Below the pieces are notes generated by a model. It ran no database searches. It saw only the letters and a list, made by a program, of their open reading frames with translations, and was not told the origin of the DNA. A DNA stretch of 64,000 nt from Bdellovibrionales bacterium (GTDB lineage Bacteria > Bdellovibrionota > Bdellovibrionia > Bdellovibrionales > UBA1609), in assembly GCA_965197855.1 (NCBI GenBank), contig OZ240230.1, positions 64,153 through 128,152 of the forward strand. Reading direction: 5' to 3'. The position numbers and the translations under genes are program-made. This document shows, piece after piece, positions 1-33,980 of the stretch. The stretch's first letter is position 1. Each line of letters opens with the position of its first letter.

Positions 1-1578
1 GGATAAAATATTTCCCCCACTTTTTGTTTTGAGCATATTGACAAAACTCATTAAGCTTGGAATTTGTAAACCCTCTGTCATATCCTTGCCTTCTAAAATA
101 TTTTTTTCACTGGCCATAGCTCCAACATTTTTAAAATCTTTTAATAGTCCCAGAAGGGGAAGGGCAGAGCCTACATTGACAAAGTTAGTTCCAAATCCAA
201 AGATAGATTCGTTGCCAGGCTGTTTCATTAAATCACCAAAGCTATGAGAGCTAAATCCTATACGAGGGAGTAGACCGCTTAATTCTCCTTTTTTATCTGT
301 TAAGAATTTATAGGTAGTAATATCCCAAGTAAAATTATCTTCTGCATTGAGATCCATAATAATGGTTTTAATAAAGACCTGATTTTTAGGAATATCAATT
401 TTATCGAGTATAGATTTTAAAATCTGATAGTGATGCCTTTTGGCTGTAATTAGAAGACTGTTTGTGTTCTTGTCATGAGAGACCTTGATGGTATCTTGCA
501 TGCCGCCGGAAGAGCCAAAAAGAGTGTGCAGTCCAAATCGTTGGATATTTCTTGGGGCATTTTTACCGGTTGTTTTTGGTGTTTGCAGAATACTATTTAA
601 AGTTTTCTCAATATCTGCGGCAATTCCATATTTGACATAATAGACAAAGATACCTCCAGCGGCCTGGGAGTCGAATTTAATATCCAGTTTTTTAATTAAA
701 TTTTTTACTTTAAGAATACCGTCGTTGGTTCCTGAAATAATGATGGAATTGGTTCTCTCATCGGGAATCAGAGCAGATACCCCGGATGTGTTGGCCTGTG
801 AGGAGGAAATGAGATTAGAGCCGGGACGCTGTCTAGTGGTGCTGGAAAACCTTCGTGAAGAAGTCCTGTTATTAATCAATAAATAAAGTTTATTTGTTAA
901 ATCCACAGCCGTGGCGTGCTTGATAGGCACAACTTCTAATTGAGTATGAACATTTGGAATATCCAGCTCTTTAATAATTTGGCTGACTTTTTCAATAGTG
1001 GCCCCATAGTCGCTGACAATAATGGTATTGGCTTCCTCATAAAATAGAGCTTTACTGTTTTTATCAGAGAGAAATTGTTTTAAATGTTTTTCTAAAACTT
1101 TAACATTGGCATGTTTTAGTTTAAAAATTTTTGTGATGTATTGATCAACGTCCGGAAAATATTCCCCTTTGTAAACTTGTACATTGTCTCTGGAAGCCTT
1201 GTCGGCGCTAATAACTTTCCAAAAGGCGCCGCTTCGAACTAAAGCATACCCGTTGATAGATAAGGCGGATAAAAAGGCCTGAAACGCTTCAGCGACAGTG
1301 ATGGGCGATGGCGCCACAATACTGATTTTACCTTTAATGTTTGGATCAATAATAAAATTAATCCCTGTCAACTTACTCATGGCTTTGACAATGTCAGCGA
1401 TGTTGGCATTCGGATAATCAAAACTTTTTATAACGTCGGGAAAATTTTCGGAATCAATGTCATCAATAAAGGCTTCATTGAGAGGGATGCCGGAGACAGC
1501 GCCTTTTTTTTGAATCACTTGTGCTAAAGAAAAAGGTGCAGATATCACGCAATATGCGATTATAAAAATCCATTTCAT
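1..1578 (-). CDS. gspD: Type II secretion secretin GspD, N-terminal 526 codons; the gene continues past the window start
   Basis: Absent from the ORF track because there is no stop in the window. My reverse-strand translation from the ATG at 1576-1578 reads MKWIFIIAYCVISAPFSLAQ (signal peptide). It continues with repeated secretin N-domain-like modules (ANIADIVKAMSKLTGINFIID, FKLKHANVKVLEKHLKQFL, VPIKHATAVDLTNKLYLL, YYVKYGIAADIEKTLNSIL) and the onset of the secretin core (NQVFIKTIIMDLN). The frame is open to base 1, and a gspC-like gene lies directly upstream. Confidence 0.8.
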   Translation of the reverse strand, partial: MKWIFIIAYCVISAPFSLAQVIQKKGAVSGIPLNEAFIDDIDSENFPDVIKSFDYPNANIADIVKAMSKLTGINFIIDPNIKGKISIVAPSPITVAEAFQAFLSALSINGYALVRSGAFWKVISADKASRDNVQVYKGEYFPDVDQYITKIFKLKHANVKVLEKHLKQFLSDKNSKALFYEEANTIIVSDYGATIEKVSQIIKELDIPNVHTQLEVVPIKHATAVDLTNKLYLLINNRTSSRRFSSTTRQRPGSNLISSSQANTSGVSALIPDERTNSIIISGTNDGILKVKNLIKKLDIKFDSQAAGGIFVYYVKYGIAADIEKTLNSILQTPKTTGKNAPRNIQRFGLHTLFGSSGGMQDTIKVSHDKNTNSLLITAKRHHYQILKSILDKIDIPKNQVFIKTIIMDLNAEDNFTWDITTYKFLTDKKGELSGLLPRIGFSSHSFGDLMKQPGNESIFGFGTNFVNVGSALPLLGLLKDFKNVGAMASEKNILEGKDMTEGLQIPSLMSFVNMLKTKSGGNILS

Positions 1579-1637
1579 AAAGACTTCCTTGTTATTATGT
1601 TTCTATCATAGTCAGTTTTCAAGATGAGAACAAGTCC

Positions 1638-2675
1638 CTATTGGACGGAGGCATCCTCATTGATATTATAGGAGATTTCACGGGCTTCTCCCTTTTCGTT
1701 TTCCACAACGACAGAGAATTGACTGTCGGCTCGAAATTGTTGAAAGAGTTTTTGGGCTTCCATGTTGTCATTGACCTTTTCACCATTGACGGAAACCAGC
1801 ATATCTCCTTTAAGGAAGCCTAAGCTTCCAAAAATACTTCCATCTTCAATCCATGTAAAAGTATGCCCTAATATTTTACCATCTGTGCCATATTGTGGTT
1901 CGACTCTAGCTTGTTGCAAGATGTCAGGAAGTTGCTGTAAATATTCATTAAGGGAGGAGCGAGCGACAGAATATCGATTATTGTCTAATTGGGAAATACC
2001 TTTGTGATTGGGCGTTTTTTTCTCTGGGGGTTTAATTGGTTCATCTTTGTTTGTTATTTTTGATTCTTTTGAAAAACTAATCAATGACTCTTCCTTGGGA
2101 ATTTCTAAATGTTCCAATTGGTTGTTGAGTAAATTAACAAATATAACTTTTCTTCTTTGCACCTGTGTGACTCTGGCTTTGTTGTCAATTGTATCTCCGA
2201 CAAAGTAAGAATTTGTCTCCCCGGAGGAAGTTACTTGAATGGAAGCCATGGATCTTTTGGGATTAAAATTTTCAATAGTTCCCAGTAATTTGAAAGGCAG
2301 TCCTGTTTTTTTGGATTCACCGATGATTGTGAGTTCTTGCTTTTTTTCCAGTTCTTTAAGGGGAGGGGGAATGGGACCGCTATGGAAAATATTTACTGTA
2401 TGTATAAAATTTGAAGAAGTAGATGAATTTTTTTTGAATGGAAGAGTTTTTGGTTTTTGAAGTGTAATGTCATTTTTTGGAAGCAAGGCAGACCTGATAA
2501 ATAAAATAACAAGGTCTGCTAGGGCTAAAGTAATTAAAAAAGTCAGTATCCAGCGGCTGTATTTAAAAAAAAAAGGAGGAATTTTTTTTAAAATAGTGTT
2601 GAAATCCATTTTTTGGAATTGTTTCCAAAGAAAGTTCTTAGATTGGTGTACAAAATTTAATATTAACTGTTTCAA
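1638..2675 (-). CDS. gspC: GspC-like T2SS inner-membrane component (N-terminal TM helix plus C-terminal PDZ-like domain)
   Basis: 345-aa ORF with TM segment WILTFLITLALADLVILFI and a C-terminal PDZ-like stretch FGSLGFLKGDMLVSVNGEKVNDNMEAQKLF. It sits immediately upstream of gspD on the same strand, the canonical gspC-gspD order. Confidence 0.55.
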   Translation of the reverse strand: MKQLILNFVHQSKNFLWKQFQKMDFNTILKKIPPFFFKYSRWILTFLITLALADLVILFIRSALLPKNDITLQKPKTLPFKKNSSTSSNFIHTVNIFHSGPIPPPLKELEKKQELTIIGESKKTGLPFKLLGTIENFNPKRSMASIQVTSSGETNSYFVGDTIDNKARVTQVQRRKVIFVNLLNNQLEHLEIPKEESLISFSKESKITNKDEPIKPPEKKTPNHKGISQLDNNRYSVARSSLNEYLQQLPDILQQARVEPQYGTDGKILGHTFTWIEDGSIFGSLGFLKGDMLVSVNGEKVNDNMEAQKLFQQFRADSQFSVVVENEKGEAREISYNINEDASVQ

Positions 2676-16667: not shown

Positions 16668-16672
16668 TTAGC

Positions 16673-16700: not shown

Positions 16701-16711
16701 CCTTGCGTACA

Positions 16712-17407: not shown

Positions 17408-17420
17408 AACGACACTAAAG

Positions 17421-18596
17421 TTATTGAGATGAAGTTTTGGATTTTTCTAAATTGTAAATTTTCTCAAGAGTGGTATGCACAGCACTAGGTATGATCTTTT
17501 TTCCATTTACAAATAGAGCAGGAGTTCCTTGAATTTTTAGTTTTCGCCCTTCTGAAATTTGTTTGAAAACAGCTGTTGAGGTTTCCTTCGATTCTACACA
17601 GTGTTGGATATCCGGAACTTGCCATTGATTGAGTTGGTTTTGAATTTGTCTTTTTATCTCTTCAACATTTTGTCTGAGTTGAACCCAATTCTCTTGATGA
17701 GAAAAAATAAAGTTTTGCAGTTCGAGTTTTTTTGTTGTGGAACAAAAAACAGCTTTGGACAAATAACAGGAAGCGCTGTTGGATTCTTCTTTTTCCTGAC
17801 AGCCCTTTGGGTTTAATGGAAAGTGCATGTATTCCAAACGTATACCCGGATATGCTTTTTGAAATGTTTGTAAAACCTTATAAACGCGCTGGCAGTGAGG
17901 ACATAAAAAATCAACAAACTCAGTAACGGTTAAAATGGCTTGGGGGCGCTGGGGGCCGGAGGATAAGTAATTTGACTTTGAGGATGTGTATTGAATATCT
18001 GCTTGCCTCCAATCTATAAAATTAGACAGAGCCATGGATTTTTGAGCAGGGTAAAGTTGAAGACTCCAGCCATGCAGAAGTAGAGTTAAAACTCCTGTCG
18101 AAAGGGCAATGATACTCAATACTTGAATGTCAGGTTTAATTCCCACAAAAGTGACAAGTTGGGTTTTGGACAGTCCTCTCTTAAGGGGCCATAAAACCAG
18201 AAAAGATAAAATATAACAAACAGTGCAAAGAGGACAGAGAGTATTGAGGATTGCAATAGAAATCACAAGCATACATAGAGAGCTTAGTGCGGAGAGTACG
18301 GCGACTCTCCAAACCCACGAGGACCAAATGTTTTCCAGCCATCTCCATTGAAGTAAAATGAGGGTGATGAGGCAAAATGCATTGAGAGCTATGGCAAAGT
18401 GAGAGATAGGTATGCCAAAAATCTCTGAAAAAGCAGAGGTCAGGGCTTGGTCGCAGTTCCATGTAGACCCTATTTCACATAGATTAAGAAAAGAGGAATC
18501 TGCCTTAAGGGAATAGGAACGTAAAGATAGATAGAGCTGTACGGCTATAGAAAAGCCAAATAAAATAAGGCTTGGAATAAGAAATCTTTTTTTCAT
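17421..18596 (-). CDS. VKOR-family oxidoreductase fused to a thioredoxin/DsbA-like domain (periplasmic disulfide formation)
   Basis: 391 aa. The N-terminal half is polytopic, with a loop Cys pair (CEIGSTWNC) and the membrane CxxC (LCPLCTVC). The C-terminal half is soluble, with the thioredoxin-fold CxxC (FLCPHCQ). Confidence 0.7.
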   Translation of the reverse strand: MKKRFLIPSLILFGFSIAVQLYLSLRSYSLKADSSFLNLCEIGSTWNCDQALTSAFSEIFGIPISHFAIALNAFCLITLILLQWRWLENIWSSWVWRVAVLSALSSLCMLVISIAILNTLCPLCTVCYILSFLVLWPLKRGLSKTQLVTFVGIKPDIQVLSIIALSTGVLTLLLHGWSLQLYPAQKSMALSNFIDWRQADIQYTSSKSNYLSSGPQRPQAILTVTEFVDFLCPHCQRVYKVLQTFQKAYPGIRLEYMHFPLNPKGCQEKEESNSASCYLSKAVFCSTTKKLELQNFIFSHQENWVQLRQNVEEIKRQIQNQLNQWQVPDIQHCVESKETSTAVFKQISEGRKLKIQGTPALFVNGKKIIPSAVHTTLEKIYNLEKSKTSSQ

Positions 18597-19213: not shown

Positions 19214-19216
19214 GGT

Positions 19217-19312
19217 GGATTCCTGCGAAAGCGGGAATCCAGTCAATCTTGGCTCAACGTTTTTGGTTGGCACCTCAACCGCCTCGCTCCTGCGAAAGCA
19301 GGAATCCGGTCA
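19217..19312 (-). repeat. Family A repeat, long form with hairpins at both ends (A3)
   Basis: ggattcctgcgaaagcgggaatcc ... cttggctcaacgtttttggttggcacctcaaccgcctcgctcctgcgaaagcaggaatcc. Confidence 0.85.
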
Positions 19313-19377
19313 TAAAAAAATAAGTGACTTAACTTCTTTGTGTTTATAGGATTACAATTTGTATTTGGAGTAAAGAT

Positions 19378-22150: not shown

Positions 22151-22852
22151 GTGAAAGAAATGAAATGGATATACTCATATAGATATTACTTAATAGGCGT
22201 AGCAGGTGTTTGCGTTCTGGCAGGCTTGTCTTATTGGGGATGGGGTCTTTATTTACAAAAGCAAAATGAGCAAGCGGAGACAGCTCTTTATCCTTTTCGC
22301 TTTCGTTTAATAGAGGCAGAAAAAAAAGCAGGGGGTGAGTTGCTCAGTTCCCGTTCTTTGTTTCAAGAAAAAAAAGCTGATTTTGAATCTGTTTCTAAAG
22401 AAGTGGAGAGTTATAAAAACTTTTTGATGTCTCAAAACACAGCTCGGCCGGCTCATTTAATTTCAGCTATTGAACTTGCTTCTTTTCTTATTAAATATGA
22501 AAAACAAGATAGTGCTTTAAGTCTTTTGGATTTTGTACGTATGAAATCCTTTTCTCGCTCTAACTGGCTTTATTCTGTTTTATTGATTCAACTGGGTACT
22601 TTGTTTATGGACAAAGGGGACTTTACAAGAGCTATTGATTTGTTTTCAGAAGTTTTATCCTTTAAAAGCGCCAGGCCTTTTTATCAGGAGATCTTATTAA
22701 AAACAGCTCTTTGTTATGAATCTATAGGGGAGCTTGAAAAATCTTCTGATATTTATAATGAAATTCGTCAAAATAAAAATGCAGGGCTTTACAAAGAAAG
22801 GGCTCTTCATTATGATCGTCTTTTTCGATTAAAGAAAAAGTTGGGGAAGTAG
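22151..22852 (+). CDS. YfgM-like membrane-anchored TPR protein
   Basis: 233 aa with one N-terminal TM helix (YLIGVAGVCVLAGLSYWGWGLYL) and a TPR-like C-terminus. It lies directly upstream of bamB, as yfgM-bamB does in proteobacteria. Confidence 0.5.
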   Translation: MKEMKWIYSYRYYLIGVAGVCVLAGLSYWGWGLYLQKQNEQAETALYPFRFRLIEAEKKAGGELLSSRSLFQEKKADFESVSKEVESYKNFLMSQNTARPAHLISAIELASFLIKYEKQDSALSLLDFVRMKSFSRSNWLYSVLLIQLGTLFMDKGDFTRAIDLFSEVLSFKSARPFYQEILLKTALCYESIGELEKSSDIYNEIRQNKNAGLYKERALHYDRLFRLKKKLGK

Positions 22853-23944
22853 ATGATATTTAGATTGGTTTTATTATTTTTGTTGTTGGGCTGTCAGCAT
22901 ATAGCTCAAAAGGAGCCGGGTTGGTTGAGAAAAGAGTGGATTGTCAATACTCTTTCTGAACCTTATTTAAAAACAAAAATCCTTCAAAAAACAAAATCCA
23001 TTTTAACTCAAAACCTGGTTGTACAAGGAGATTCTTTGTATGGAGTGCGGGCTTATAGCCGGGACAGCGGCAACCTTCAATGGTTTTTTGCTGTTACTGG
23101 AGGTGTTGAAGGGGGCTTGGCTGTTGATAAAGAACGTTTGGTTTTCGGAGGTTCGGACGGCTTCTTTTATTGTTTGGAACTTAAAACAGGTGTCTTACTT
23201 TGGAAGTTTTATACAGGCTCTGAAAATTTAGGCGAGCCTTCTGTTTCCAATGGTCATGTGTACTTTTTAACATCAAAAGAAAAAGTTTATGCCTTGAGCA
23301 TTCGAACTGGAAAGCTTATTTGGGTGCATCGCCCTCAAAATATTGCTCCTTTAAGTATTCGAGGGGTCAGTCGTCCTTTTGTGGATGCTCAAAGAGTTTA
23401 TGTGGGCTTTAGTGATGGCACTGTCTCTGCTTTAAATAGAAAAACTGGTCAGTGGATATGGAAAGTTTCTCTTGCTAAAGGTAAGGAGAGGTTTAAAGAT
23501 GTAGACGCCAGCCCTATTGTTAGAGGAAACCTGCTTTATGTGTCCAGTTTTGACGGGGGTCTTTTTTGTTTAAATAAAATAACAGGGAAGACAGTTTGGA
23601 GAAATAAAAAGGGAAGTTATTTTGCTCCTTCTATTGAGGGTAAGAGGTTATATTATGCTTCTACTAATTCTGAGATTTTAGCTCTCAACCGTTTGTCAGG
23701 AAAAATTCTTTGGAAGAAAAAAATTAAAGGCTTAGCTACAAGGCCTGTTATTTATCAGTCGTTTTTGTTATACGGGCTTTCTACAGGTCCTTTTCATATT
23801 ATTGATAAACAAGACGGCTCTTTGTCTTATAAGTTGAATATGTTTCGAGGTGTTTCTGCTGAGCCTGTTTTAGATTCTACTTTAAAAGAACTATACGTCA
23901 TGTCTATTGAGGCCTGGTTGTACAAGTTTGCTCTTCTATTTTAA
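22853..23944 (+). CDS. bamB: BamB-like outer-membrane assembly lipoprotein (PQQ-like beta-propeller)
   Basis: 363 aa with lipobox LLLGC-Q and repeated propeller blades with the G..Y.....G.L.W pattern (GKLIWVH, GQWIWKV, GKTVWRN, GKILWKK). Confidence 0.7.
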   Translation: MIFRLVLLFLLLGCQHIAQKEPGWLRKEWIVNTLSEPYLKTKILQKTKSILTQNLVVQGDSLYGVRAYSRDSGNLQWFFAVTGGVEGGLAVDKERLVFGGSDGFFYCLELKTGVLLWKFYTGSENLGEPSVSNGHVYFLTSKEKVYALSIRTGKLIWVHRPQNIAPLSIRGVSRPFVDAQRVYVGFSDGTVSALNRKTGQWIWKVSLAKGKERFKDVDASPIVRGNLLYVSSFDGGLFCLNKITGKTVWRNKKGSYFAPSIEGKRLYYASTNSEILALNRLSGKILWKKKIKGLATRPVIYQSFLLYGLSTGPFHIIDKQDGSLSYKLNMFRGVSAEPVLDSTLKELYVMSIEAWLYKFALLF

Positions 23945-23953: not shown

Positions 23954-24006
23954 ATTCCTGCTTTCGCATCACACGTCATCCCCGCGAAGGCGGGGATCCA
24001 GTCATA
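23954..24006. repeat. Family A repeat, short composite (A4), just after bamB and upstream of the Cys-rich operon
   Basis: attcctgctttcgca + acacgtcatccccgcgaaggcggggatccagtc. Confidence 0.8.
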
Positions 24007-24108: not shown

Positions 24109-24173
24109 ATTCTTTTGTCTTCACGGATGTGAGAGGCTTGTTATCTTATTGTGGAGTGACAAGACAAAAGAAT
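24109..24173 (+). promoter_or_regulatory. Long inverted repeat about 80 nt upstream of the Cys-rich operon (candidate operator or leader hairpin)
   Basis: The left arm attcttttgtcttcac (24109-24124) pairs with the right arm gtgaCAagacaaaagaat (24156-24173). That is 12 perfect bp plus 4 more after a 2-nt bulge, around a 31-nt loop. Confidence 0.3.
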
Positions 24174-24250: not shown

Positions 24251-26098
24251 ATGGATTTTAAAGATACGAGAAGGTATATGTTTCGATTCAGAAGTTACAT
24301 AGGCTCCAAAAAAGGAAGCCTTGTTTTGTCTTTAGTTGCTTCAGCTACTGTAGCGGCAACTATTGTAGCCACTCATCAGGTGGCGCAACGTTTTGCCAGT
24401 GGAGCTGTAGGAGCTTTCAATCAACAGCAAGCTTATGTACTCGCCCAAAAATCTCTGGCTGTCGCGGGCCTCATGGTCAATAGAAACGTCATTCTTTGCT
24501 CGAATATACCAAAGGGGGCGGGAGGTAGAGCAGTTGGCTGTAATTGGAAAGAACCTTTAGCGGATGATAGTTTAGCAAGAGAACTTTATAATTCTTTAAA
24601 ACTAGATACTACATGGTTTAATGTGGGGAATAATATTGATAATAATAACCATGATGCTTATGCTCAATATTATCTAACACTTAAAAATCCTAAAGAGAAC
24701 TACCTTGGTTCTGTTTTTAAAAATGCGGAAGTGACCTGGGCTTTAAGGAGTTTAAAAGATACGAACCTTCGTTCTATTTCCGGGGCTTTCAGCAAAGGGT
24801 ATACTTGTCGAAATGTAAATACTTTTGATGTGATTGAGGAAGGTTATTGTGACTTAATGGATGAAGATAGATCAGATGAAGAAAAGTTCTCGGGCATGTT
24901 GAGCAACCTCGATAGCCATCTTTTAAGTGATGAAAATAAAAAATGTAGAACAGTAGACACCACTAGTGATAATAAGATTGATAAAGATGATGATGTTAAC
25001 GATTCAAGGAATGATGATAGTGTTTGCGATTATTATGCGCATTCGGATGGGGACACTGCGATTGTGTTTATCAGTGTCAAGGTGCCTTATCAAGTGTCAG
25101 ATGCTGAAGAAGAGGGATCCAAAAATTTAATTGTAAATGCGGCCATTCGAAGACCTATGTCTATTATTAAAACTCAGATTAAAGAGGATTCTTCTATGTG
25201 TCCTGTTAGCTGTATAATAGCCAAGCGCACGAATATGGGCTCTTCAAATGTTGATTTTCCGGAGTGTGCAGGTTTTGCTTCCGGCAATCAAAATGGAGAA
25301 CAATATTTTTCGGATAATATTCATACTGTTGAAACCAAACTGAAGCTTAAAAATTATGGACCGGGTGTTTTATATGGCATTAGCTTATTAAAAGAGGATA
25401 TTGATCCCAGAACAGGTCTTCTTTTAGGAAGAAGTATGGTGAGTTTCCAAGATTCAGATCCTTCTTCTCTTGCAGATACTCCTTTAGAACCGGCTCATTT
25501 AACAACAAACCCACCGGATGTTGAAGAGGGGGTGAGAGTGCTTGCACACCATACTCCTTGTTATTCTTCCAACTTTTACAAACCAAATCTTCAACGTATA
25601 ACCTGTGATTGTGAGCTGAATCCTCCTGATCCTCCTGATCCCACCACAGGTTCCAAAAATACTGCAAATGGAGTGATTTGCATGAAGGGAACATCCGTTT
25701 GTGCCGGCAAAAATATTTTTGTCAGTAATGTCCCAGGTGTCTTGCAGGATGATTCTACAACGCAGGACGCTCGCAACAGTTTAAGTGGTTGTTTTCATGC
25801 TCCGGGTACATTGGAAGATCTTCCAACTCTTTCCAATGCTGTAGTTACTGCATTTGAAAAACCATGTATAGACGCAACAGACTGTCAGTTTACTCGTATT
25901 GATAATGATCAGATTAGCACTACAAAAGAATCATGGTGTGGAAATGATTATGTCGGAAATGACCCTTCTACAAAACCTACAGGAAGAGAACTTCGCCCTA
26001 CAGACGAAACACAAGTGGCGTTTCCTGACCCTGTGGAATCGACGGTTTTTTCAGCGGCTAACCAAGCTGATATACCTTTAACTACACCTAGCCCTTAA
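24251..26098 (+). CDS. Large secreted/anchored Cys-containing protein with a PilX_N-like (minor-pilin-like) N-terminus; operon gene 1
   Basis: 615-aa ORF. The N-terminus KKGSLVLSLVASATVAATIVATHQVAQRF...QQQAYVLAQKSLAVAG resembles the hydrophobic helix plus A..AE.G pattern of PilX/GspK-type N-termini, but it lacks Glu+5. An AAGG lies 3-4 nt upstream of the ATG at 24278 (MFRFRSY), which is the more likely start. The rest is D/N/S/T-rich with many Cys and a PPDPPDP tract. Confidence 0.6.
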   Translation: MDFKDTRRYMFRFRSYIGSKKGSLVLSLVASATVAATIVATHQVAQRFASGAVGAFNQQQAYVLAQKSLAVAGLMVNRNVILCSNIPKGAGGRAVGCNWKEPLADDSLARELYNSLKLDTTWFNVGNNIDNNNHDAYAQYYLTLKNPKENYLGSVFKNAEVTWALRSLKDTNLRSISGAFSKGYTCRNVNTFDVIEEGYCDLMDEDRSDEEKFSGMLSNLDSHLLSDENKKCRTVDTTSDNKIDKDDDVNDSRNDDSVCDYYAHSDGDTAIVFISVKVPYQVSDAEEEGSKNLIVNAAIRRPMSIIKTQIKEDSSMCPVSCIIAKRTNMGSSNVDFPECAGFASGNQNGEQYFSDNIHTVETKLKLKNYGPGVLYGISLLKEDIDPRTGLLLGRSMVSFQDSDPSSLADTPLEPAHLTTNPPDVEEGVRVLAHHTPCYSSNFYKPNLQRITCDCELNPPDPPDPTTGSKNTANGVICMKGTSVCAGKNIFVSNVPGVLQDDSTTQDARNSLSGCFHAPGTLEDLPTLSNAVVTAFEKPCIDATDCQFTRIDNDQISTTKESWCGNDYVGNDPSTKPTGRELRPTDETQVAFPDPVESTVFSAANQADIPLTTPSP

Positions 26099-26116
26099 GG
26101 AACTTGGAGAAAGGAT

Positions 26117-29100
26117 ATGAAAGAGATTTTATGGATGAAAAAGATTAGAAATATTTTTATAATTTTTTTATTTTTGTTTGAGTTTTCTGTATTTTCAGTA
26201 CCTGGAATTAATTCGACCGCAATTTGTCGAGCTATATTCAATAGAGTCGGTATGTCATGCAATCAAATAAGTTATACATTTGATCCACACTTGAAATGTC
26301 TATGTGATGGGAATGAGGTAAATAATAACCCCACTTCTTCCTGTCCGTCAGGATCAACTTATGTGAAAAGACCCATTCCTATTACTTCTTCTTATAGTAT
26401 TAGTTGTGATTTCAAATCCTATCATAGGGGTAAGGACACTCATGAATCTGCATATCCATCATCTACGGATAGAAGTGAACCCCTACGTAGTTGTAAGGCT
26501 AATTTGAATGTAGAAAAAAGTCTTTTATCAAACTCAATATATTGTGGCCAACATACAGGAACTAATGTGCCTTTAACGCTTCAGACAGTTTGTCCTTATA
26601 ATGATTTACAACAATGTAAAGATGAGTTGATAAATATGATTGAGGGGCGTGTGACATTCAAACCTGGTGAAGTAGTAAGCAGGAATAGTAGTTGCTGTAA
26701 AAAGCAATGGAATCACTGTACTTTTGCAACTAATTATTATCGGAATAATGGATCCCTTGTGGATAATATTTGTACTAAAAAACTGTATGATAGAACAACG
26801 AACCTTCCAGTACATGATTTATTTATTCCTAATAATAAGCTAGATCGTATTGTATTAGCTTCAGAGAACGGGCCGTTTGCAGATATGCAATGTATTTCAG
26901 ATAATATTAAATATGAAGATATGTGCGTATGTAATAATGGTAATTATGAATTTGAGTTAGGGCAAGACTTTACTTGTGAATGCTGTGGGGGAGTGGATAG
27001 GGATCCAAATACTGGAAATTGTCTTCCTCCTCCTCCTGGATCTCCTTGTTGTAATATTCCTGTTGGTACATCAAATTTTATAGGAACGGAGATTAATCCC
27101 CCAATTACAGCTCCTGGATCCTGTCGTTGTAAGTGTCCTAATGCCGGTATGGAACAGACTAGTTTTCTAGTTTCAAATACTGCAACAGCCTGTCCGACTA
27201 CCCCTCCAGCAGAGTGTATCATTAATGATAAATGTCCTGATGAGCCTAATTGGAACACCTCTGATCCAACGAATTCACCCATACATCCTTTTGTGACATC
27301 AAAGCCAGGACAAATAAATAATGCAGATAGGTGTAAAAATATTGGTGGATTATTTGTAAATACAGGAGTGGGATTTTGTGAGATGGATGCAATTTGTGAA
27401 CCAGATGTTGATGATATCGCATGCTCTTCTGGGACAGAAGAAACTATTCATGGTAAATGTCAAGAGGTAGGAGTAATGCAGAAAGTATGTCTGTATGGGA
27501 GTCACATTACTCCAGGTGATGGTAATAGTAACGATGACTGCCCGGATGGCTGGATAGAGGAAAAGGTTTATGGTCAACATACAGTATGTATGAGCATAGA
27601 GAGTGCTATAATACGTGGTACAATAGCCATGGTTATTACTCCTCCTGCTTCCTCTGAGATAACAGCTCCTCCTTGTCAGGGCAGGCTTATCAGATTTCCT
27701 TATGTAAAGTTAGATACTGCTAATCCTTACCCACCCTGCAGTCCCGGTAAAGAGAAGATAACACTAGATCCCCTATATTCTTCACTTGTGGTAGCATCAA
27801 GGGAAGTATGTAGTGATCCTATTTCTAGCAATGGAATTCCTAATATTATACCGGGTTCATATATTTGTAATATAGGAGCTCCGAGTTCTCTGAATGATAG
27901 CTGTGAGTGTAAAACTTCAAAACCTGGGCAGGTTTGTCCTGCCACACACGATAGAACAAGTGACAGTATGGGATTAGGCAGTTGTGATTGTCTTGATTCC
28001 ACTTGGACTAACAACTCAGGTACTTGCTCTAAAACTCCTTCTGGCTCTGCTGGTCTTACTTTATATACTAACTATTGGCAGAGTACAGGATCGAAAATAA
28101 CCCCGGCCAGTCTCAATCCTATATATGCACACATGCCAGAACCTCCAGGTCCTGCTACATATGCAGAGGCTATAGCAGATAATTGGGGTTGTTTTTCGGT
28201 CCCACCTTCTGATGTAATGGGGCTACCAGGATTACCTTGGATTGGGAATCCTCAACCAGCTTATACCTGTTGGAAAGATACAAAGTCGTGTCCGGATGGA
28301 GGGACATACAATGTCGGCCCACCAGAAGTGTGCGAGATGCCTTGTACTCAGCAAAATGATCCGATTAATTGCAGATGTGTGAAAGACATTACCAGCTGTG
28401 AATGTGACACAGGTGGAGGTTGGTTCGCTCATGGCAGTAAATGTAGGAAACAAGCTAATAATCCTTCTCCTAGATTATGTACTTGTGAGTGTTATTCGCC
28501 TTCGCAAGACCTAAATATGAATTTTTCCCCTGGAGATTTGCTCACGAAGAGGATGTATGAAGCAATCAGCAATGACATTCTAGCAAATCCAACAAACCCA
28601 ACGATTTGTACTGAGGATACCTCAGGTGGGGACTGTGATCCAGTGGATTCTTGTTGTCATCAAGGGGTATGTCATGCTTCCTGTCCCGTTATTACACCTG
28701 ATAACGTGTGTTGCAAAAATTGCCTTGATGGAAGTCCAATACCAGCACCTCCAGGTGGTTGTTGCCCCAATGGAACGGCTATTGCTGATTTAAAGAATTG
28801 CTCATCAGGAGTTCATATTGGGGGCAATCCTATGGGGATTGATATAGCCTTTGGCTCCAATAATTCCGCCTCTATTTATTCAGTTTATTCTACAGGCTCT
28901 ATGGACAGACCGGATTATATTTGTTGGATGAATGATCCTAATGGAAGCTCTACCAGAGTGCAAAAAAGAGACCTGCTTTGCCCTCCTCAAGAGGACTGTG
29001 GTGGAGGGGCTAGAGATGTCAGTACACAACAATGGTGTCAGTGCCAGGGTTTGAATGCTTCCGATGAATTATTTAATGTAGATAATACCTACTGTGAATA

Positions 29101-29227
29101 CGCGGCTAGAGATCCTATGAGGTTTGAAGATGGGATTATCAAAGGGGATCTGCCTTCTTCAAGACAAAATGATAAATATGAAACAGATATTAGAATTTTC
29201 AAACAAACCCCTATTATCACACCCTAG
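26117..29227 (+). CDS. Extremely cysteine-rich secreted protein (1036 aa), unknown family; operon gene 2
   Basis: Signal peptide-like N-terminus IFIIFLFLFEFSVFSVPG. My manual count gives about 78 Cys (7-8 percent), many in CxC, CC or CxCxC clusters (KCLCDG, DMCVCNNG, FTCECCGG, GSCRCKCP, SCECK, SCDCL, NCRCV, SCECD, LCTCEC, WCQCQG). It is P/G/T/S/N-rich. The SD-like ggagaaagga lies ahead of the ATG, 18 nt after the gene 1 stop. Confidence 0.75.
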   Translation: MKEILWMKKIRNIFIIFLFLFEFSVFSVPGINSTAICRAIFNRVGMSCNQISYTFDPHLKCLCDGNEVNNNPTSSCPSGSTYVKRPIPITSSYSISCDFKSYHRGKDTHESAYPSSTDRSEPLRSCKANLNVEKSLLSNSIYCGQHTGTNVPLTLQTVCPYNDLQQCKDELINMIEGRVTFKPGEVVSRNSSCCKKQWNHCTFATNYYRNNGSLVDNICTKKLYDRTTNLPVHDLFIPNNKLDRIVLASENGPFADMQCISDNIKYEDMCVCNNGNYEFELGQDFTCECCGGVDRDPNTGNCLPPPPGSPCCNIPVGTSNFIGTEINPPITAPGSCRCKCPNAGMEQTSFLVSNTATACPTTPPAECIINDKCPDEPNWNTSDPTNSPIHPFVTSKPGQINNADRCKNIGGLFVNTGVGFCEMDAICEPDVDDIACSSGTEETIHGKCQEVGVMQKVCLYGSHITPGDGNSNDDCPDGWIEEKVYGQHTVCMSIESAIIRGTIAMVITPPASSEITAPPCQGRLIRFPYVKLDTANPYPPCSPGKEKITLDPLYSSLVVASREVCSDPISSNGIPNIIPGSYICNIGAPSSLNDSCECKTSKPGQVCPATHDRTSDSMGLGSCDCLDSTWTNNSGTCSKTPSGSAGLTLYTNYWQSTGSKITPASLNPIYAHMPEPPGPATYAEAIADNWGCFSVPPSDVMGLPGLPWIGNPQPAYTCWKDTKSCPDGGTYNVGPPEVCEMPCTQQNDPINCRCVKDITSCECDTGGGWFAHGSKCRKQANNPSPRLCTCECYSPSQDLNMNFSPGDLLTKRMYEAISNDILANPTNPTICTEDTSGGDCDPVDSCCHQGVCHASCPVITPDNVCCKNCLDGSPIPAPPGGCCPNGTAIADLKNCSSGVHIGGNPMGIDIAFGSNNSASIYSVYSTGSMDRPDYICWMNDPNGSSTRVQKRDLLCPPQEDCGGGARDVSTQQWCQCQGLNASDELFNVDNTYCEYAARDPMRFEDGIIKGDLPSSRQNDKYETDIRIFKQTPIITP

Positions 29228-29236
29228 GAGAGCATT

Positions 29237-32200
29237 TTGAATTATTTTAAAAGATCAAATCGTGGTTTCTCCTTAATAGGCTCTCTTCTTGGGTTTTCTC
29301 TTTTAGGATTATCCACAGTAGGGCTTGCCACATATATGGGAAGTTTTGAACAGGTAAAAGTTACTTATTCTCGTCAATCCAATGTTAACTTTATGCATTC
29401 CGAGCTTTTGGGAAGTATGGGAAAAATTATAACGATGACTAAAACAGAGGTCACAAGTCCTAATGCTACAAATTCTCATTTAAAAAAAGAGTTTGGTTTG
29501 TGTGCAGTGGTAAAACAAGATAATCAATACGACTCTGTTAAAGATAAAGCCATTTGTGCCATTACACTGACAGGCTCTGCTATTGTTTCTCCTTCTGGAG
29601 CAAATGCCTATAATGAAGATGATCGTTGGAGTTACTTTATTCAAGAAGGTAAAAACTGGCAGGTCTCTTCAGGGAATTGTACAAATGGCAGTAATGGTTT
29701 TGTAGGGGACTTTAGTGAAGATGAATTTAATAAATGTGTGAAGTATATTGGGAAAACTCAGACAGATGATATTTTTGCTCGCCTTAGTATGGAGCCACAA
29801 AGGCTTCCCTCTTTTAACAAAATTGACAATTCAGATAGTATTCCTGTGGATGAATTGGTTTTTAAATTACATTCTGTTATTTCTGTTCCTCGTGAGTTAG
29901 AAGTTGGCAATATAGTTTTTTCATTAAGTAAAAGTGAAAAATATCTATGGAGTACAGAGGTCTTGGACTGTCATATTTGTGATAGTGGTCAATGTAAGCT
30001 AGCTCGATTTTCTACAGCCTCTCAAGGTACAGCCGCAAGACATAGTCGAATCTGTTATCACTCTCCTTATAAAATGAAAGAGAAAAAAGATGCTTTGGAA
30101 ATTATTGTGGAAAAAATTCCTCCAGAATTTGAAGAAAGTGGAAATCGAATTGTTGCAAGTACGACTCAACAGGATTACTCTTCTTCATGCCGCTCCAATT
30201 TATTTCGATGTGGAAATGCTGTAGATGTAAAAGATTTTGATCCGGCTCTTAAGTTTCGCTTTTTATTAAATTATGACCAGCCGGAAGATTCTTATATTAA
30301 TAAAATGGGTTTAAAAATTACTGATGGCTCGGATGACAAAGAGTATGGAACTTTATTTGTATCTGCAGATCAACAAGCTCGTGTAGGTCGAACTCAAGGT
30401 GGTGTTGACAGTGAGTTTGTTGATAAGGATTCAACAACAGCTAATAAACACTTTTGGCCTTTAAGAGCAGGTACAAATGAGATTACATCTTTTATGGCGG
30501 ACCAGGATTCTTCTGATTCAATTTGTACAGATATTTGTTCCGGCTCCAGCCCTTCTTACTATCCGGAATTAACTGTTGAGTATGGAGGCTCTCAGTGTGA
30601 TAGCGGTAACTGTACGGAATCGCTGCTATCTGCTTCATCTCTTAAAATTGCATGCTTTCAATGTAATATGAAAAGTTGTCATCGCTATGGTATAAAAACT
30701 CATACGGGTGTAGATTCTAGTAATAACTATGTCGCTAGAAGTAGTGAACCTCTAGATGGAATTGTTCCTGAATGTCTTATTGAAGATAATGTGAGTGTAA
30801 GTGCGGATACAACTTTAATTACAAGTGGTGTGACTGATGCTGTAAATAATAAATGTTTACAAACAACTAGCGGAAATAATTTAAAGGCTGTTACTTGTAC
30901 CAATACCTCTGGAGGTGGAGACCCTGTATTTATACAAGGTACGACTAAATCAGCTTGTTTTTTAGAAGGGCAGACTAAAATTTTGGAGGGAGGCTATACT
31001 GGCGGTTTGGATGCTCGAAATAACTGTCTACAGGTCTTATATGAAGAACAGCTTATTGGACAAGGTACAGATGGAGTTTGGAGAGAGGGTATTTTGCCTA
31101 ATATAGCTATAGCTTATAATATTCTTCCAGAAGGGGATGGGACAGATCGAGGTGTCAAAGAAGTTTTGGAAGATCAGGAGTTTGGAGGACTCGATCCAAG
31201 CTCAGGTGGAACATATACTTTTAATAATTATGCCAGATTTTCTACATTTTTTGGAGATCATACAGATGTTACTGAGCCAGATGTATTTGTGACTTTTCAA
31301 AGGGATGCTTCCGGAATGTTTCATTCAGGCTGGCATCGTTTCTTAGGGGTTGCAAATAGTGGTACAACTGCAGAAAGAGAGCGCTGGGCTTTTTTCTATA
31401 GAGAGCCTTTTAACAGTATTAATTTTCATGATGTAGGTGGTTTAACAGTATTAAATAATAATGATGGTAGTAAAAATACCGGTGAATTACCTAAAGGTAC
31501 CACCAGAAAAGAATTTTTAGGAAGAGCTCGGCCCTCTCGTCCTGTTTATATTAAAATGGGCAATGATTTTCATGCGGATTATCCAGGTTTAAAGCAATTA
31601 AACGATAATCCTCCGAATCATTATCTGGCTTTAATTCATCACTTGACTTTTAAAGGGATTCGTCCTGTTAAAACTCCTGCAAAAAATAATTATCCTTATC
31701 TATGTAGAAATATAAAAGCCACAACTTATAAAGAGGCTTTTGTGATCACTGTGGCTGAAGGAAGAGATATAAATAATGGGTATCAGAATTGCCGTAATTT
31801 AAACCCTCCTCCTCCTCCTCCTCCTCTAGAGCCTAGTGAAGACTGGTATTTTATTCCTCCGGATTCCAGAGAACTTTGGGTGGCGGCCTTGCAGGCGGTG
31901 GCTCCAAATGCCCTTCGCTATCCTTTTCCTAATCCTTTTAATTTTGCAGATGGTATTCCTTTTTGGAGAGAGCGAAAAAGCGGCGATATGGGTTATGATG
32001 CTAAAAAACGTCAATGGGAGCTTAGCTACAGTTATGCAGATATGTCTTCTGATGATTATTTGTTGTCTGAAAAAAATGATCATCAGTTTTTATTTAAAAA
32101 CAGTGTGGGCAGTCCATCACCTAAACCTTCTGGAACTTTAGCCAGACCTGCCACAGCTTGGATTGGAGGGCTTGCTCCAATTGCGCTAACAGGAGGTAAT

Positions 32201-33823
32201 GCCGGGGTCAGCTGGAGCTGGAAGCCGGATTGGCTGAAGATATTAGGAAATTCTTTTACTCTTGGGTATGATCCTTTGGAGGATACTGCACTTTCACTGC
32301 TTTTTAATGATAGCTTAACTGCTGCTCTAATAGATACTCTTATTGTTGAACTTGAAGATGACACTAACTTTGATAATATCGGTGTTCTTAACTCTAATGG
32401 TCGTGTGATGAGTTTTAAGTCTTTAAGACAGCCTAATAATTTAGGTGAGTTTCAAGATAAGGTTACTAAATTATGTAGATACGATGAAAATGTACAGCAA
32501 TTGGATTTTCATAGAGCTTTAATTATAACAGGAAAGGGTACTAATTGGCCTTCTGGAAATGACTGTAGTGGTTTATCTTCTTCCAATTCAGAAAGCTTTT
32601 TAGCAGATGATCTAGACAGTATTTATTTTGAAATACCTTCCACTCCGGGTAACAGCAACTTGAAAAATCTAGCAGGAGATGATTTTGTAGAAGTTCGACA
32701 GGGGATTCGTACTTTAATTCCACTTTTGGCCTATAAGAAGCAAGGAGCTATGCATGTCCATAATACAGATAAGTTTTGTCGGGCTTGGAAGAGGGAGAAA
32801 AAAAGAAGAGCTGTTGGAAATTGTATTATTGAAAATTATAATGCCGGTACTCTTTCTAAAGGGGGTGTGAATCATGGTTTGCCAGTGACTCAAACTGTCA
32901 GGACTCAGGCTGTATGCCATCCATTAAGTAAAAATTGTGATATTGCTCCTAGTTCTTTCCAAACTCAGCTTACTACCAAACAAGCTGAGCTTTCAACTGC
33001 TCAGTCGCAGTTGGCTACAGCAAACAATAATTTAGCCTCAGCAACCACTACTTGTAATCAAATTTGTCCTGCTTGTGTTACTGTTCCTGACACTGCATTC
33101 ACTTCGTGCCAGCAAGCTTGTTGGAGCTGTCTCAGTGGATGCAGTGGTGATCCCGATCAAGCTGTTTGTGAGAGTGTTTGTAGAGGCGCGATGGTCAACT
33201 GCAGAACTTCGTGTGGCTGTCCAACACCACCCTGTGGTACTACAACAGATTGTTCAGTACGAGATGCTTGTGTAGCTTCTAGAAATGCCGCTTGCAATAG
33301 TAGACCTGGAATACAAGTTCAAATAACATCTCTTACAGATATAATAGATGAATTAGAAAACAATGTAATTCCTTGTATGCAGGCAAATATAGGAAGTATC
33401 ACAAAGGCAAGCTGTATGGCTAATCTCGATAATGTTAATTCACATGCCACAGTTTACTCTCCAGCTTTTGCTTCTTGTCCACAGGCTTCGGCTTTGTCGA
33501 TTGATTTTAAGATATCACATTTAGGTAGTGCGAGCGATAGTAGATGCTGGCGTTTAGATGATTTAAAGCCGAAGTATGAATTTAGCTTTAATGATGGAAC
33601 CTCCAATTTAACTGGTAGAGTTGGTGTATTGGGAGATAGCCAGGCGCTTACAGACTGGGATCACGATCGTAACTGTGGTACAGCATCTACTTCTCTATAT
33701 CCATTACCTGCCGCTTGTGACAACTACTATACTGACTTGATTAATTTACATAATAATCTTTGTAATGATGGGATAGATTATGGTAATCAAACTTGTGAAC
33801 ATAATTATACTGGACCTTTATAA
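29237..33823 (+). CDS. Giant (1528 aa) protein with a prepilin-like N-terminal helix, a long unknown body, a coiled-coil segment and a Cys-rich C-terminus; operon gene 3
   Basis: The TTG start at 29237 is preceded by AGGAG (29226-29230) at 6-nt spacing. That AGGAG overlaps the gene 2 stop (29225-29227). The N-terminus KRSNRG-FSLIGSLLGFSLLGLSTVGLATYM resembles the type IV pilin/pseudopilin class III signal (G|F-x-L-I-x), with Gly instead of Glu at +5. There is a Pro7 run, a C-terminal coiled coil (TQLTTKQAELSTAQSQLATANNNLASA), then a dense Cys region (CNQICPACV...CQQACWSCLSGCSG...CESVCRGAMVNCRTSCGCPTPPCG). Confidence 0.75.
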   Translation: MNYFKRSNRGFSLIGSLLGFSLLGLSTVGLATYMGSFEQVKVTYSRQSNVNFMHSELLGSMGKIITMTKTEVTSPNATNSHLKKEFGLCAVVKQDNQYDSVKDKAICAITLTGSAIVSPSGANAYNEDDRWSYFIQEGKNWQVSSGNCTNGSNGFVGDFSEDEFNKCVKYIGKTQTDDIFARLSMEPQRLPSFNKIDNSDSIPVDELVFKLHSVISVPRELEVGNIVFSLSKSEKYLWSTEVLDCHICDSGQCKLARFSTASQGTAARHSRICYHSPYKMKEKKDALEIIVEKIPPEFEESGNRIVASTTQQDYSSSCRSNLFRCGNAVDVKDFDPALKFRFLLNYDQPEDSYINKMGLKITDGSDDKEYGTLFVSADQQARVGRTQGGVDSEFVDKDSTTANKHFWPLRAGTNEITSFMADQDSSDSICTDICSGSSPSYYPELTVEYGGSQCDSGNCTESLLSASSLKIACFQCNMKSCHRYGIKTHTGVDSSNNYVARSSEPLDGIVPECLIEDNVSVSADTTLITSGVTDAVNNKCLQTTSGNNLKAVTCTNTSGGGDPVFIQGTTKSACFLEGQTKILEGGYTGGLDARNNCLQVLYEEQLIGQGTDGVWREGILPNIAIAYNILPEGDGTDRGVKEVLEDQEFGGLDPSSGGTYTFNNYARFSTFFGDHTDVTEPDVFVTFQRDASGMFHSGWHRFLGVANSGTTAERERWAFFYREPFNSINFHDVGGLTVLNNNDGSKNTGELPKGTTRKEFLGRARPSRPVYIKMGNDFHADYPGLKQLNDNPPNHYLALIHHLTFKGIRPVKTPAKNNYPYLCRNIKATTYKEAFVITVAEGRDINNGYQNCRNLNPPPPPPPLEPSEDWYFIPPDSRELWVAALQAVAPNALRYPFPNPFNFADGIPFWRERKSGDMGYDAKKRQWELSYSYADMSSDDYLLSEKNDHQFLFKNSVGSPSPKPSGTLARPATAWIGGLAPIALTGGNAGVSWSWKPDWLKILGNSFTLGYDPLEDTALSLLFNDSLTAALIDTLIVELEDDTNFDNIGVLNSNGRVMSFKSLRQPNNLGEFQDKVTKLCRYDENVQQLDFHRALIITGKGTNWPSGNDCSGLSSSNSESFLADDLDSIYFEIPSTPGNSNLKNLAGDDFVEVRQGIRTLIPLLAYKKQGAMHVHNTDKFCRAWKREKKRRAVGNCIIENYNAGTLSKGGVNHGLPVTQTVRTQAVCHPLSKNCDIAPSSFQTQLTTKQAELSTAQSQLATANNNLASATTTCNQICPACVTVPDTAFTSCQQACWSCLSGCSGDPDQAVCESVCRGAMVNCRTSCGCPTPPCGTTTDCSVRDACVASRNAACNSRPGIQVQITSLTDIIDELENNVIPCMQANIGSITKASCMANLDNVNSHATVYSPAFASCPQASALSIDFKISHLGSASDSRCWRLDDLKPKYEFSFNDGTSNLTGRVGVLGDSQALTDWDHDRNCGTASTSLYPLPAACDNYYTDLINLHNNLCNDGIDYGNQTCEHNYTGPL
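31805..31825 (+). repeat. (CCT)7 trinucleotide repeat encoding Pro7 inside operon gene 3
   Basis: Read directly as cct x7 at 31805-31825, in frame with the 29237 start (peptide NPPPPPPPLEP). Confidence 0.9.
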
Positions 33824-33842: not shown

Positions 33843-33980
33843 ATGTCATCTCTGTAAAAACACAGAACGCCAGAAACTTTGGAATTCTTTATAAGCCTTC
33901 GCTCAGAAGTTTCGGTTGGCATCTGCACCACTTCGTCATCCTTACAATACATGTCATCCCTGCGAGAGCAGGGATCCAGT
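33843..33980 (-). repeat. Family A repeat, long composite (A5), between the Cys-rich operon and PBP1A
   Basis: gtcatctctgtaaaaacacaga ... gccttcgctcagaagtttcggttggcatctgcacc ... gtcatcc ... gtcatccctgcgagagcagggatccagt. Confidence 0.8.

Follow-up and report, generated by a model that had tools for sequence, protein, structure and literature searches.

We analyzed a 64,000-nucleotide stretch of a Bdellovibrionales genome (contig OZ240230.1, positions 64,153 to 128,152; called the window below, at its full length) and focused on a three-gene operon in it. The operon encodes a pilin-like protein that lacks the glutamate at position 5 of mature type IV pilins (Glu5) (gene 1), a Sec-exported cysteine-rich protein (gene 2), and a giant protein derived from a type IV pilin (gene 3). 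With moderate confidence, we interpret the encoded proteins as a specialized adhesin that primes a type IV filament, most likely a type IVa pilus, and sits at its tip in the manner of minor pilins.

The three genes are closely spaced and their products share unusual properties. All three open reading frames are on the + strand, separated by gaps of 18 nt (gene 1/gene 2) and 9 nt (gene 2/gene 3), and GGAG-type Shine-Dalgarno sites directly follow or overlap the preceding stop codons (taaGGAacttGGAGaaaggatATG and ccctAGGAGagcatTTG). These coordinates and junctions are as described in a first-pass annotation of the DNA. Each protein has one hydrophobic segment, at the N-terminus (residues ~10–32). 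The number of cysteines is even in all three: 18 in gene 1 (3.0%), 78 in gene 2 (7.5%), and 54 in gene 3 (3.5%), 150 together, compared to a median of 0.9% for the window. When the three proteins were scanned against Pfam and NCBIfam at E ≤ 1, a sub-threshold coiled-coil match was the only result, and no PDB sequence matched the profiles built for gene 1 and gene 3 within their clade. Close homologs among 5.8 billion clusters (~20 for gene 3, 15 for gene 1, and 2 for gene 2) were all unnamed or annotated as 'hypothetical protein', and the literature that we searched contained no experiment on any member of the three families. The first-pass annotation had recognized no catalytic or known adhesin domain in these proteins and had called the set undescribed; both statements hold, as the Pfam, NCBIfam, and PDB sequence searches were empty for all three proteins and the families are unnamed.

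The deposited gene calls cut both pilin-like N-termini. The deposited gene 3 product (P0001, 1495 aa) begins at Met34 of gene 3 because the call misses the TTG start, and the deposited gene 1 product (P0021, 590 aa) begins ~25 codons late. The N-termini encoded by 29237–29335 and 24251–24325 of the window are lost in this way, and the pilin signature is therefore invisible in the annotation. Gene 1 probably starts at the second ATG, at 24278, giving a protein of 606 aa, because the consensus of its homologs starts there.

Gene 3 is, judging by its homologs, a derived type IV pilin, an ancestry that we regard as established. Its N-terminus reads MNYFKRSNRG|FSLIG (the bar marks the predicted cleavage site), which agrees with the prepilin-like signal RG|FSLIG, with Gly in place of the usual Glu at +5, proposed in the first-pass annotation. 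A basic leader ending in Gly at –1, an α1 helix followed by a β head, and homology to bona fide pilins are all found in gene 3; Glu5, a criterion of type IV pilins, is not. Residues 1–50 are the most conserved part of the protein (73% mean identity versus 35–58% across most of the remainder), and in the clade of gene 3 the N-terminus is almost invariant, (K/R)G|FS(L/I/V)(I/L/V)(G/S)SLLGFSLLGLSTVGLATYMG(S/N)FE. The N-terminal half of the helix (α1N) is rich in small residues (G15-x3-G19-x4-G24-x4-G29). Residues 1251–1400 have 14–17% identity and 22–58% gaps within the close clade.

The homologs of gene 3 form a large family, most members of which have canonical prepilin signals. A profile of gene 3 residues 1–1200, searched with HMMER against 1.84 billion representative proteins, matched 152 clusters at E ≤ 1e-3. 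The matched clusters are unnamed proteins of 900–1850 aa, mostly 900–1200 aa, and most of them align to the N-terminal 550–700 residues of gene 3. E-values went down to 1e-61 for relatives without Glu5 and were 1e-41 to 1e-20 for members with Glu5. The canonical signal G|(F/M/L/I)(S/T)(L/I/V)(L/I/V)E was present in 51 of the 86 recognizable N-termini of this wider family, and the members closest to gene 3 carry Gly or Ser at +5. Gly10 of gene 3 (position –1) aligns with the cleavage-site Gly of its relatives and is invariant in 12 sequences with identities down to 17%; relatives that are 18–20% identical to gene 3 and have G|FSLVE still share it.

Pilin-specific models and structures matched the wider family. 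We ran pilin motif models on four of its giant pilins (P0080, P0096, P0069, and P0042). P0080 was above both thresholds (24.0 versus 21.2 bits for Pfam N_methyl, PF07963; 20 versus 16.3 bits for TIGR02532), P0096 was slightly below that for N_methyl (18.4 versus 21.2 bits), P0069 has a weak N_methyl match in a precomputed record, and P0042, which lacks Glu5, had no match to the pilin motif models. A 100-member superfamily profile, searched against 177,635 PDB sequences, matched only type IV pilins, over the leader and α1 helix: Geobacter PilA-N at E 1.3e-4 and 1.5e-4, followed by TcpA, PilE1, and PilA. Sensitive searches thus led not to a family unrelated to pili, an outcome that the first-pass annotation had said would defeat its proposal, but to a superfamily with mostly canonical prepilin signals and with pilins as its only PDB matches. 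We do not claim a Lectin_C domain in P0080; the match was not significant (E 0.65), although the Cys spacing looks C-type-lectin-like by eye.

The predicted structure of gene 3 is consistent with a pilin. An AlphaFold2 (AF2) model of residues 1–1200, built from a shallow alignment, had a predicted local distance difference test score (pLDDT) of 62 and a predicted template modeling score (pTM) of 0.52. It contains a single 51-residue helix (residues 16–66) and then an antiparallel sheet (165–257), with pLDDT of 65–83 over residues 140–250, and this modeled helix-then-sheet arrangement is the topology of pilins. The best Foldseek matches were generic β-sandwiches (diphtheria-toxin R domain), which we discarded as non-specific. 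Residues 473–513 (~30653–30775) contain a superfamily-invariant C-x2-C-x2-K-x-C-H, followed by G.GTFGP and EPLD...PEC. This motif is kept down to 17% identity, is without known counterpart, and could represent a disulfide knot or a site for metal binding.

Gene 1 belongs to a family that accompanies the giant pilins. It has a short basic leader up to an invariant Gly (KKG|SLVLS), a ~20-aa hydrophobic helix, the conserved sequence A..LA.AG.MV.RNV.LC, a motif of the GGIRRP type, and a C-terminus that is variable and rich in Cys and Pro. All 20 aligned family members have the basic leader and Gly, ~20 hydrophobic residues, and the motif A..LA.AG.LV..N.I.C, and the boundary Gly is invariant among them with identities down to 16%. 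None of the 20 N-termini has Glu5; gene 1 itself has Ser at +5. A homolog of gene 1 was immediately upstream of the giant pilin gene in every wider-family locus that we examined (L007, L008, L010, L011, L012, L014, L015, and L016), with BLASTP E-values of 1e-19 to 1e-5 between these partners and gene 1 and down to 1e-37 among homologs.

The first-pass annotation had described the N-terminus of gene 1 as PilX_N/GspK-like. The architecture (KKG|SLVLSLVASATVAATIVA) bears this out and the models do not: gene 1 and five gene 1-like relatives had no Pfam or NCBIfam match at E ≤ 10, including to PilX_N (PF14341) and T2SSK (PF03934), and a superfamily profile of gene 1 had no match among PDB sequences. 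The AF2 model of gene 1 (pLDDT 47, shallow alignment) has a helix at residues 56–77 and strands. In loci with Glu5-bearing minor pilins, the gene 1-like protein is encoded together with them, as is expected of a cap pilin, and the likeness is one of function only. We suggest that gene 1 is GspK/PilX-like in architecture and function, and limit the resemblance to these because no pilin model matched.

Gene 2 appears to behave like an adhesin, because it has a Sec signal, contains 7.5% Cys, and has only ~150 conserved residues, at its C-terminus. Its N-terminus is an ordinary Sec-type signal, as the first-pass annotation had stated. Its orthologs in three distantly related genomes (L001, L002, and L004) are at the same gene position, have Sec-type N-termini, and contain 7.4–8.3% Cys. 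The distant orthologs align with gene 2 only over the last 130–200 residues (E 7e-9 and 3e-17), and the other 550–900 residues are unalignable. Gene 2 and five orthologs had no Pfam match at E ≤ 10, the PilY1-type β-propeller (PF05567/IPR008707) included, and a profile of the C-terminal domain had no match among PDB sequences. At ~150 aa, this domain is too small for a PilY1 propeller; it is presumed to be a docking module.

The three genes are inherited as a unit. The cassette was kept in all related genomes examined (the same three, whose records are labeled 'MAG: Bdellovibrionales bacterium' or 'Bdellovibrionaceae bacterium'; taxonomy is from the record titles), and the flanking genes were unrelated. 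The conserved unit is the cassette rather than the neighborhood. The pairing of gene 1 and gene 3 was kept across the superfamily loci examined. The co-occurrence that the first-pass annotation had asked for is thus found at two levels, as the complete cassette in the three genomes and as the gene 1-gene 3 pair superfamily-wide.

Comparison of the loci indicates three arrangements. In the branch with Glu5, the order is a gene 1-like gene, a giant Glu5 pilin gene, and a gene for a small Glu5 pilin (275–373 aa, above the N_methyl threshold), and only one pilin of this trio lacks Glu5, which is also the composition of the GspK-I-J cap. The sister branch without Glu5 (circular genomes of 1.33 and 2.03 Mb) has only the gene 1-like gene and the giant pilin gene. 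In the clade of the window, gene 2 is in place of the small pilin of the wider family. A metagenome scan gave one locus, repeating the architecture of L010. Members without Glu5 that are on long contigs (P0001, P0014, P0020, P0042, and P0045) come from genomes of 1.28, 1.33, 1.40, 1.60, and 2.03 Mb; the suffix _c in the record names of the 1.28, 1.33, and 2.03 Mb genomes apparently stands for circular. One of the related contigs is a complete chromosome of 1.28 Mb. The loss of Glu5 is accompanied by that of the small pilin and by a small genome, and the small genomes suggest a host- or prey-dependent lineage of Bdellovibrionota. We rejected the idea that the small downstream pilin was fused into the C-terminus of gene 3 or is related to gene 2, as BLASTP gave no similarity.

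One wider-family locus is next to pilus machinery. In L011, the module is ~2.5 kb downstream of pilB (MshEN + T2SSE)-pilT-pilC-pilS-pilR, and this neighborhood therefore points to a type IVa pilus. The other 11 of the 12 loci examined had no machine genes within 10 kb, which is common for minor-pilin clusters and for the Kil tips of Myxococcus (PMC12075869). The first-pass annotation had proposed the pseudopilus of a type II secretion system (T2SS) as one possible home of the complex, based on gspCD at the start of the window. The gspCD domains were confirmed, with type_II_gspD_N0 and three Secretin_N matches in the gspD fragment; the link to a T2SS is without specific support, and L011 favors the type IVa pilus. 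From their domains, gspCD are evidence that the genome encodes one or more type 4 filament machines, with no specific tie to the operon 22 kb away. A type 4 filament machine requires prepilin peptidase.

From these observations, we infer prepilin peptidase processing, complex formation, tip location, use of a type IVa machinery, and adhesion, in the following scheme. Gene 1 and gene 3 would enter the inner membrane, lose their leaders by cleavage behind the invariant Gly, and associate there through a bundle of their α1N helices. The N-terminal pilin module of gene 3 (leader, α1, and β head) would anchor ~1270 further residues, including the hypervariable Cys-rich module, and gene 1, a second pilin-like subunit without Glu5, would be the cap-like, constant partner of this giant pilin. 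Gene 2 would be exported by Sec and oxidized in the periplasm; its conserved C-terminal domain would dock on the complex of gene 1 and gene 3, leaving a fast-evolving, disulfide-stapled surface exposed. The complex would prime growth of the filament and then ride at its tip, where gene 2 and gene 3, with their hypervariable disulfide-stapled modules, could bind the surfaces of cells that are hosts or prey of these reduced-genome Bdellovibrionota. The scheme has precedents. In known systems, assembly is primed by a complex that stays at the tip and has a Glu5-less subunit as its cap, and CofJ, a secreted protein, is presented by a trimer of CofB (PMC10191384); exposure at the tip is expected for modular pilins (PMC8179133); and the KilLMN tips are encoded by three-gene, disulfide-rich clusters away from machine genes (PMC12075869).

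The system would function like known tip complexes and, as far as its sequences tell, is homologous to none of them beyond the pilin N-terminal module. Like the modular type IV pilins PilB and PilC of S. sanguinis, the giant pilins have a pilin module and a bulky extra module, a geometry that is expected to fit only the tip of a filament (Raynaud et al. 2021, PMC8179133). P0080, and P0069 by its precomputed weak match, also share the N-terminal motif model(s) PF07963/TIGR02532 with them. However, the present family is 900–1850 aa long, compared to 860 aa for the largest protein in the published survey (PMC8179133), and the additional ~1270 residues of gene 3 match no known domain. A survey based on InterPro would miss the gene 3 branch because Glu5 is lost and the motif models failed. 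The wider family also resembles the GspK-I-J and PilVWX-FimU/PilY1 systems in co-encoding one Glu5-less pilin (enlarged, like GspK) and two Glu5 pilins, and gene 2, Sec-exported with a variable N-terminal and a conserved C-terminal part, occupies the gene-order position of PilY1. But we found no similarity, at the level of sequences or models, to GspK, PilX, PilW, PilV, FimU, or the PilY1 β-propeller, and those systems have four or five components, compared to three here with two Glu5-less subunits in the clade of the window.

The closest parallel in a predator is different in class. The KilL, KilM, and KilN tips of the Myxococcus Kil Tad pilus, for which a role in prey recognition was proposed (Herrou et al. 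2025, PMC12075869), and the present proteins are both encoded by three-gene clusters in predatory bacteria, away from machine genes. Both have many predicted disulfides and a giant pilin with a distal domain that is without a PDB homolog and varies between paralogs. However, KilLMN are TadE/F/G homologs of the type IVc class, whereas the GF(S/T)L(I/V)E signals of the present family are of the type IVa/T2SS class, and a hidden Markov model scan found no TadE-like (PF07811) match. In addition, all three Kil proteins are pilins and gene 2 is not. In CofB-CofJ (CFA/III of enterotoxigenic Escherichia coli) and TcpB (V. cholerae), a large minor pilin at the tip adapts a separately secreted adhesin, the role that we propose for gene 3 (with gene 1) toward gene 2. 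Here too, homology was not detected. Those are type IVb systems, CofB is ~520 aa and homotrimeric, and CofJ is not rich in Cys. New here are the size, the unfamiliar folds, the dedicated gene 1 partner family, and, in the clade of the window, the double loss of Glu5 combined with a secreted Cys-rich third component.

Several results weigh against a filament-tip complex. Glu5 is missing from gene 1 as well as gene 3, which the first-pass annotation had not remarked on, and only one such subunit occurs in known tip complexes; an N-terminal amine would therefore be unpaired, which casts doubt on polymerization under a filament. Pilus machinery was adjacent in only 1 of the 12 loci examined and never in the clade of the window. 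Gene 1 fails PF07963, TIGR02532, and all PilX, GspK, PilV, and PilW models, and gene 3 has no match to any of these even at E ≤ 1. Model quality was mediocre, with pLDDT of 47 (gene 1) and 62 (gene 3). The Foldseek comparison suggested in the first-pass annotation gave no PDB match at E ≤ 0.001, pilins included. Some of these results would suit a complex that is derived from pilins and is no longer part of a filament, either a separate envelope complex held in the inner membrane by the helices of gene 1 and gene 3 or one that is pushed once through the secretin like a short pseudopilus, presenting gene 2 or acting in the periplasm or at the surface. Glu5 is absent from both pilin-like proteins, the two reduced-genome branches without it have also lost the small Glu5 pilin, the α1N of gene 3 is unusually conserved and rich in small residues in a way that suits tight packing of transmembrane helices, and no pilus genes are near the operon in any locus of the core clade. 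We nonetheless consider this explanation unlikely. The boundary Gly, which would be unnecessary in a simple membrane anchor, is invariant in both gene 1 and gene 3; the leaders remain short and basic; the hypervariable Cys-rich modules suggest exposure to the outside; and the genome retains a secretin and gspC.

A T2SS pseudopilus, with gene 1 as a GspK-like and gene 3 as a GspJ-like cap subunit and gene 2 as a substrate of the system encoded by gspCD, appears quite improbable to us. GspK is the textbook Glu5-less modular cap (PMC8179133, PMC10191384), P0080 has weak sub-threshold matches to GspJ models (E ~0.04), gene 2 has a Sec signal like T2SS substrates, and gspC and gspD are 22 kb away. 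But housekeeping genes separate the operon from gspCD, T2SS operons normally include their own gspH-I-J-K genes, and there was no threshold-level match to any Gsp pseudopilin model. Moreover, the only relative that is linked to machinery adjoins pilB-pilT-pilC-pilS-pilR, and PilT is a retraction ATPase that is absent from T2SSs. It is more improbable still, and we think very improbable, that the proteins are unrelated Sec- or membrane-anchored Cys-rich envelope proteins (for example, associated with an S-layer or cell wall) with N-termini that resemble those of pilins by coincidence. The poor structure models and the lack of a direct pilin-model match for any of the three proteins of the window would fit such an origin. 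However, gene 3 is highly significantly homologous to ~50 proteins with canonical prepilin signals, the family profile matches only pilins in the PDB, the neighboring small pilins are above the N_methyl threshold, and one relative adjoins pilBTC. Coincidence is largely refuted. Based on these results, the surface complex proposed in the first-pass annotation is supported overall, save for its tie to gspCD and the PilX_N/GspK label of gene 1, and a location at the tip and a role as an adhesin are proposed.

We also considered a more specific history, which we hold as possible and rather doubtful. An ancestral three-pilin tip complex may have been remodeled in reduced-genome Bdellovibrionota (1.3–2 Mb), presumably obligate predators or symbionts, by two losses of Glu5 and replacement of the small pilin by gene 2. 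The result would be a new device for host or prey recognition, possibly without an extended pilus, in which the Cys-rich modules set the host range. These variable parts of gene 2 and of gene 3 (residues 1251–1400) could determine host range as phage receptor-binding proteins do.

Table 1. Features of the operon, the window, and related loci. Positions are those of the window unless a locus is named.
Feature	Position	Strand	Description
gene 1	24251..26098	+	Glu5-less pilin-like partner; 615 aa from first ATG
gene 1, class-III-like signal	24278..24373	+	leader MFRFRSYIGSKKG, then hydrophobic α1N SLVLSLVASATVAATIVA, Ser at +5
gene 2	26117..29227	+	1036 aa, ATG start; Sec-exported, hypervariable, 7.5% Cys
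gene 2, conserved C-terminal domain (~150 aa)	28784..29224	+	S.YSVYS.G..DRPDY.C ... TYCEYA.RDP.R ... IR.FK.T.VV.P
gene 3	29237..33823	+	1528 aa, TTG start; giant, pilin-derived protein
gene 3, prepilin-type signal and α1N	29237..29350	+	leader MNYFKRSNRG, then FSLIGSLLGFSLLGLSTVGLATYMGSFE, Gly at +5
gene 3, predicted pilin head (residues ~39–260)	29351..30016	+	α-β loop and antiparallel β-sheet; AF2, moderate confidence
gene 3, hypervariable Cys-rich module (residues 1251–1400)	32987..33436	+	18 Cys; alignment within close clade
Inverted repeat upstream of gene 1	24109..24173	.	perfect 13-nt arms, 24109–24121 and 24161–24173
REP-like palindrome, upstream copy	23975..24001	+	'family A' repeat, 27 nt
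REP-like palindrome, downstream copy	33953..33979	+	'family A' repeat, 27 nt
gspC and 5' part of gspD (secretin)	1..2675	-	gspC 1638–2675, T2SSC and PDZ; gspD fragment 1 to ~1580
VKOR-DsbA fusion	17421..18596	-	periplasmic disulfide-forming enzyme; Pfam VKOR, Thioredoxin_4, DSBA matches
PQQ_2/BamB-type gene, window	22151..23944
PQQ_2/BamB-type gene, L007	14667..15956	-
PQQ_2/BamB-type gene, L011	15835..17106
PQQ_2/BamB-type gene, L014	15737..16903
CCP_MauG gene, L010	13960..15768
CCP_MauG gene, L012	14017..15798
CCP_MauG gene, L013	12514..14331
CCP_MauG gene, L014	13931..15718
CCP_MauG gene, L015	14916..16718
Cassette, L001			634, 870, and 1684 aa
Cassette, L002 (OZ252021.1)			563, 705, and 1655 aa
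Cassette, L004			579, 1067, and 1599 aa

The DNA that flanks the operon contains repeats of two kinds (Table 1). The long inverted repeat upstream that the first-pass annotation had reported is present, with perfect arms, and may be an operator or a hairpin in the 5' untranslated region. The annotation had also placed 'family A' repeats on both flanks of the operon. Two copies of this 27-nt palindrome, which resembles repetitive extragenic palindromes (REP-like; GTCATCCCYGCGARRGCRGGGATCCAG), do flank it; the window contains five intergenic copies (16675, 23975, 33953, 45097, and 49248) versus none expected by chance, and we consider the palindrome a genome-wide repeat that is not specific to the operon because three of the five copies occupy unrelated intergenic sites. 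A σ54 –24/–12 element was not found upstream of gene 1, nor were σ70-like or terminator-like sites enriched.

The window, part of a 1.40 Mb contig, is otherwise ordinary chromosome (~37% G+C) with tsaD, argS, rpsA, cmk, bamA/tamB-type genes, and PBP1. It encodes a VKOR-DsbA fusion, a type that replaces DsbB, and this enzyme could be able to oxidize the 150 cysteines of the three proteins, with which we infer a functional link. Such a fusion fits a proteome with very Cys-rich exported proteins. A yfgM-like tetratricopeptide-repeat gene and bamB are directly upstream of the operon; the β-propeller gene here is probably a true bamB because the yfgM-like gene precedes it. A PQQ_2/BamB-type β-propeller gene adjoins the pilin module in four otherwise different loci, and in L007 and L011 it is accompanied by a pentapeptide-repeat gene and a gene for a ~395-aa membrane protein. 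This adjacency could be ancestral synteny or a functional link.

Other neighbors are specific to certain loci. In the Glu5 branch, a ~600-aa CCP_MauG (di-heme cytochrome c peroxidase-like) gene is often directly after the small pilin gene; it is absent from the operon in the window. We considered Myxococcus TfcP, a cytochrome c encoded within a minor-pilin/PilY1 cluster, as an explanation and rejected it as only a loose parallel, as TfcP is a small mono-heme protein restricted to Myxococcales. In L001, the core-clade relative that is most distant, the trio is directly preceded by a Bat-like operon (2655–5389; MoxR-type AAA ATPase, DUF58/VWA protein, and a 297-aa gene) and followed by four paralogous Hjc/DUF8196-like genes (15445–19352). 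Elsewhere in the window, directly downstream of the divergent PBP1 gene, is a gene (36109–39567, +) for a 1152-aa protein with a reprolysin/M12B-type metalloprotease domain and a long leucine-rich-repeat array, another candidate factor for interaction with host or prey. The region 46001–48000 has an AT skew of +0.32 and a G+C content of 0.31, and several large open reading frames without a Pfam domain are in or near it (46164–48374, 736 aa; 42317–44860, -; and 41106–42320).

Together, the data indicate that ~150 clusters of giant modular pilins (900–1850 aa), each with a dedicated Glu5-less partner, have been missed by present annotation, and that these pilins exceed in size any in the published survey of modular pilins. 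The family is found in uncultured, small-genome lineages like Bdellovibrio, for which attachment to host or prey is probably a central step of the life cycle. Its members form an evolutionary series, from a trio with Glu5 pilins, to a pair without Glu5, to such a pair with a secreted protein, and from this series one could learn how the cap subunit and Glu5 contribute to priming of the filament. We regard the hypervariable modules as candidates for setting the host range.

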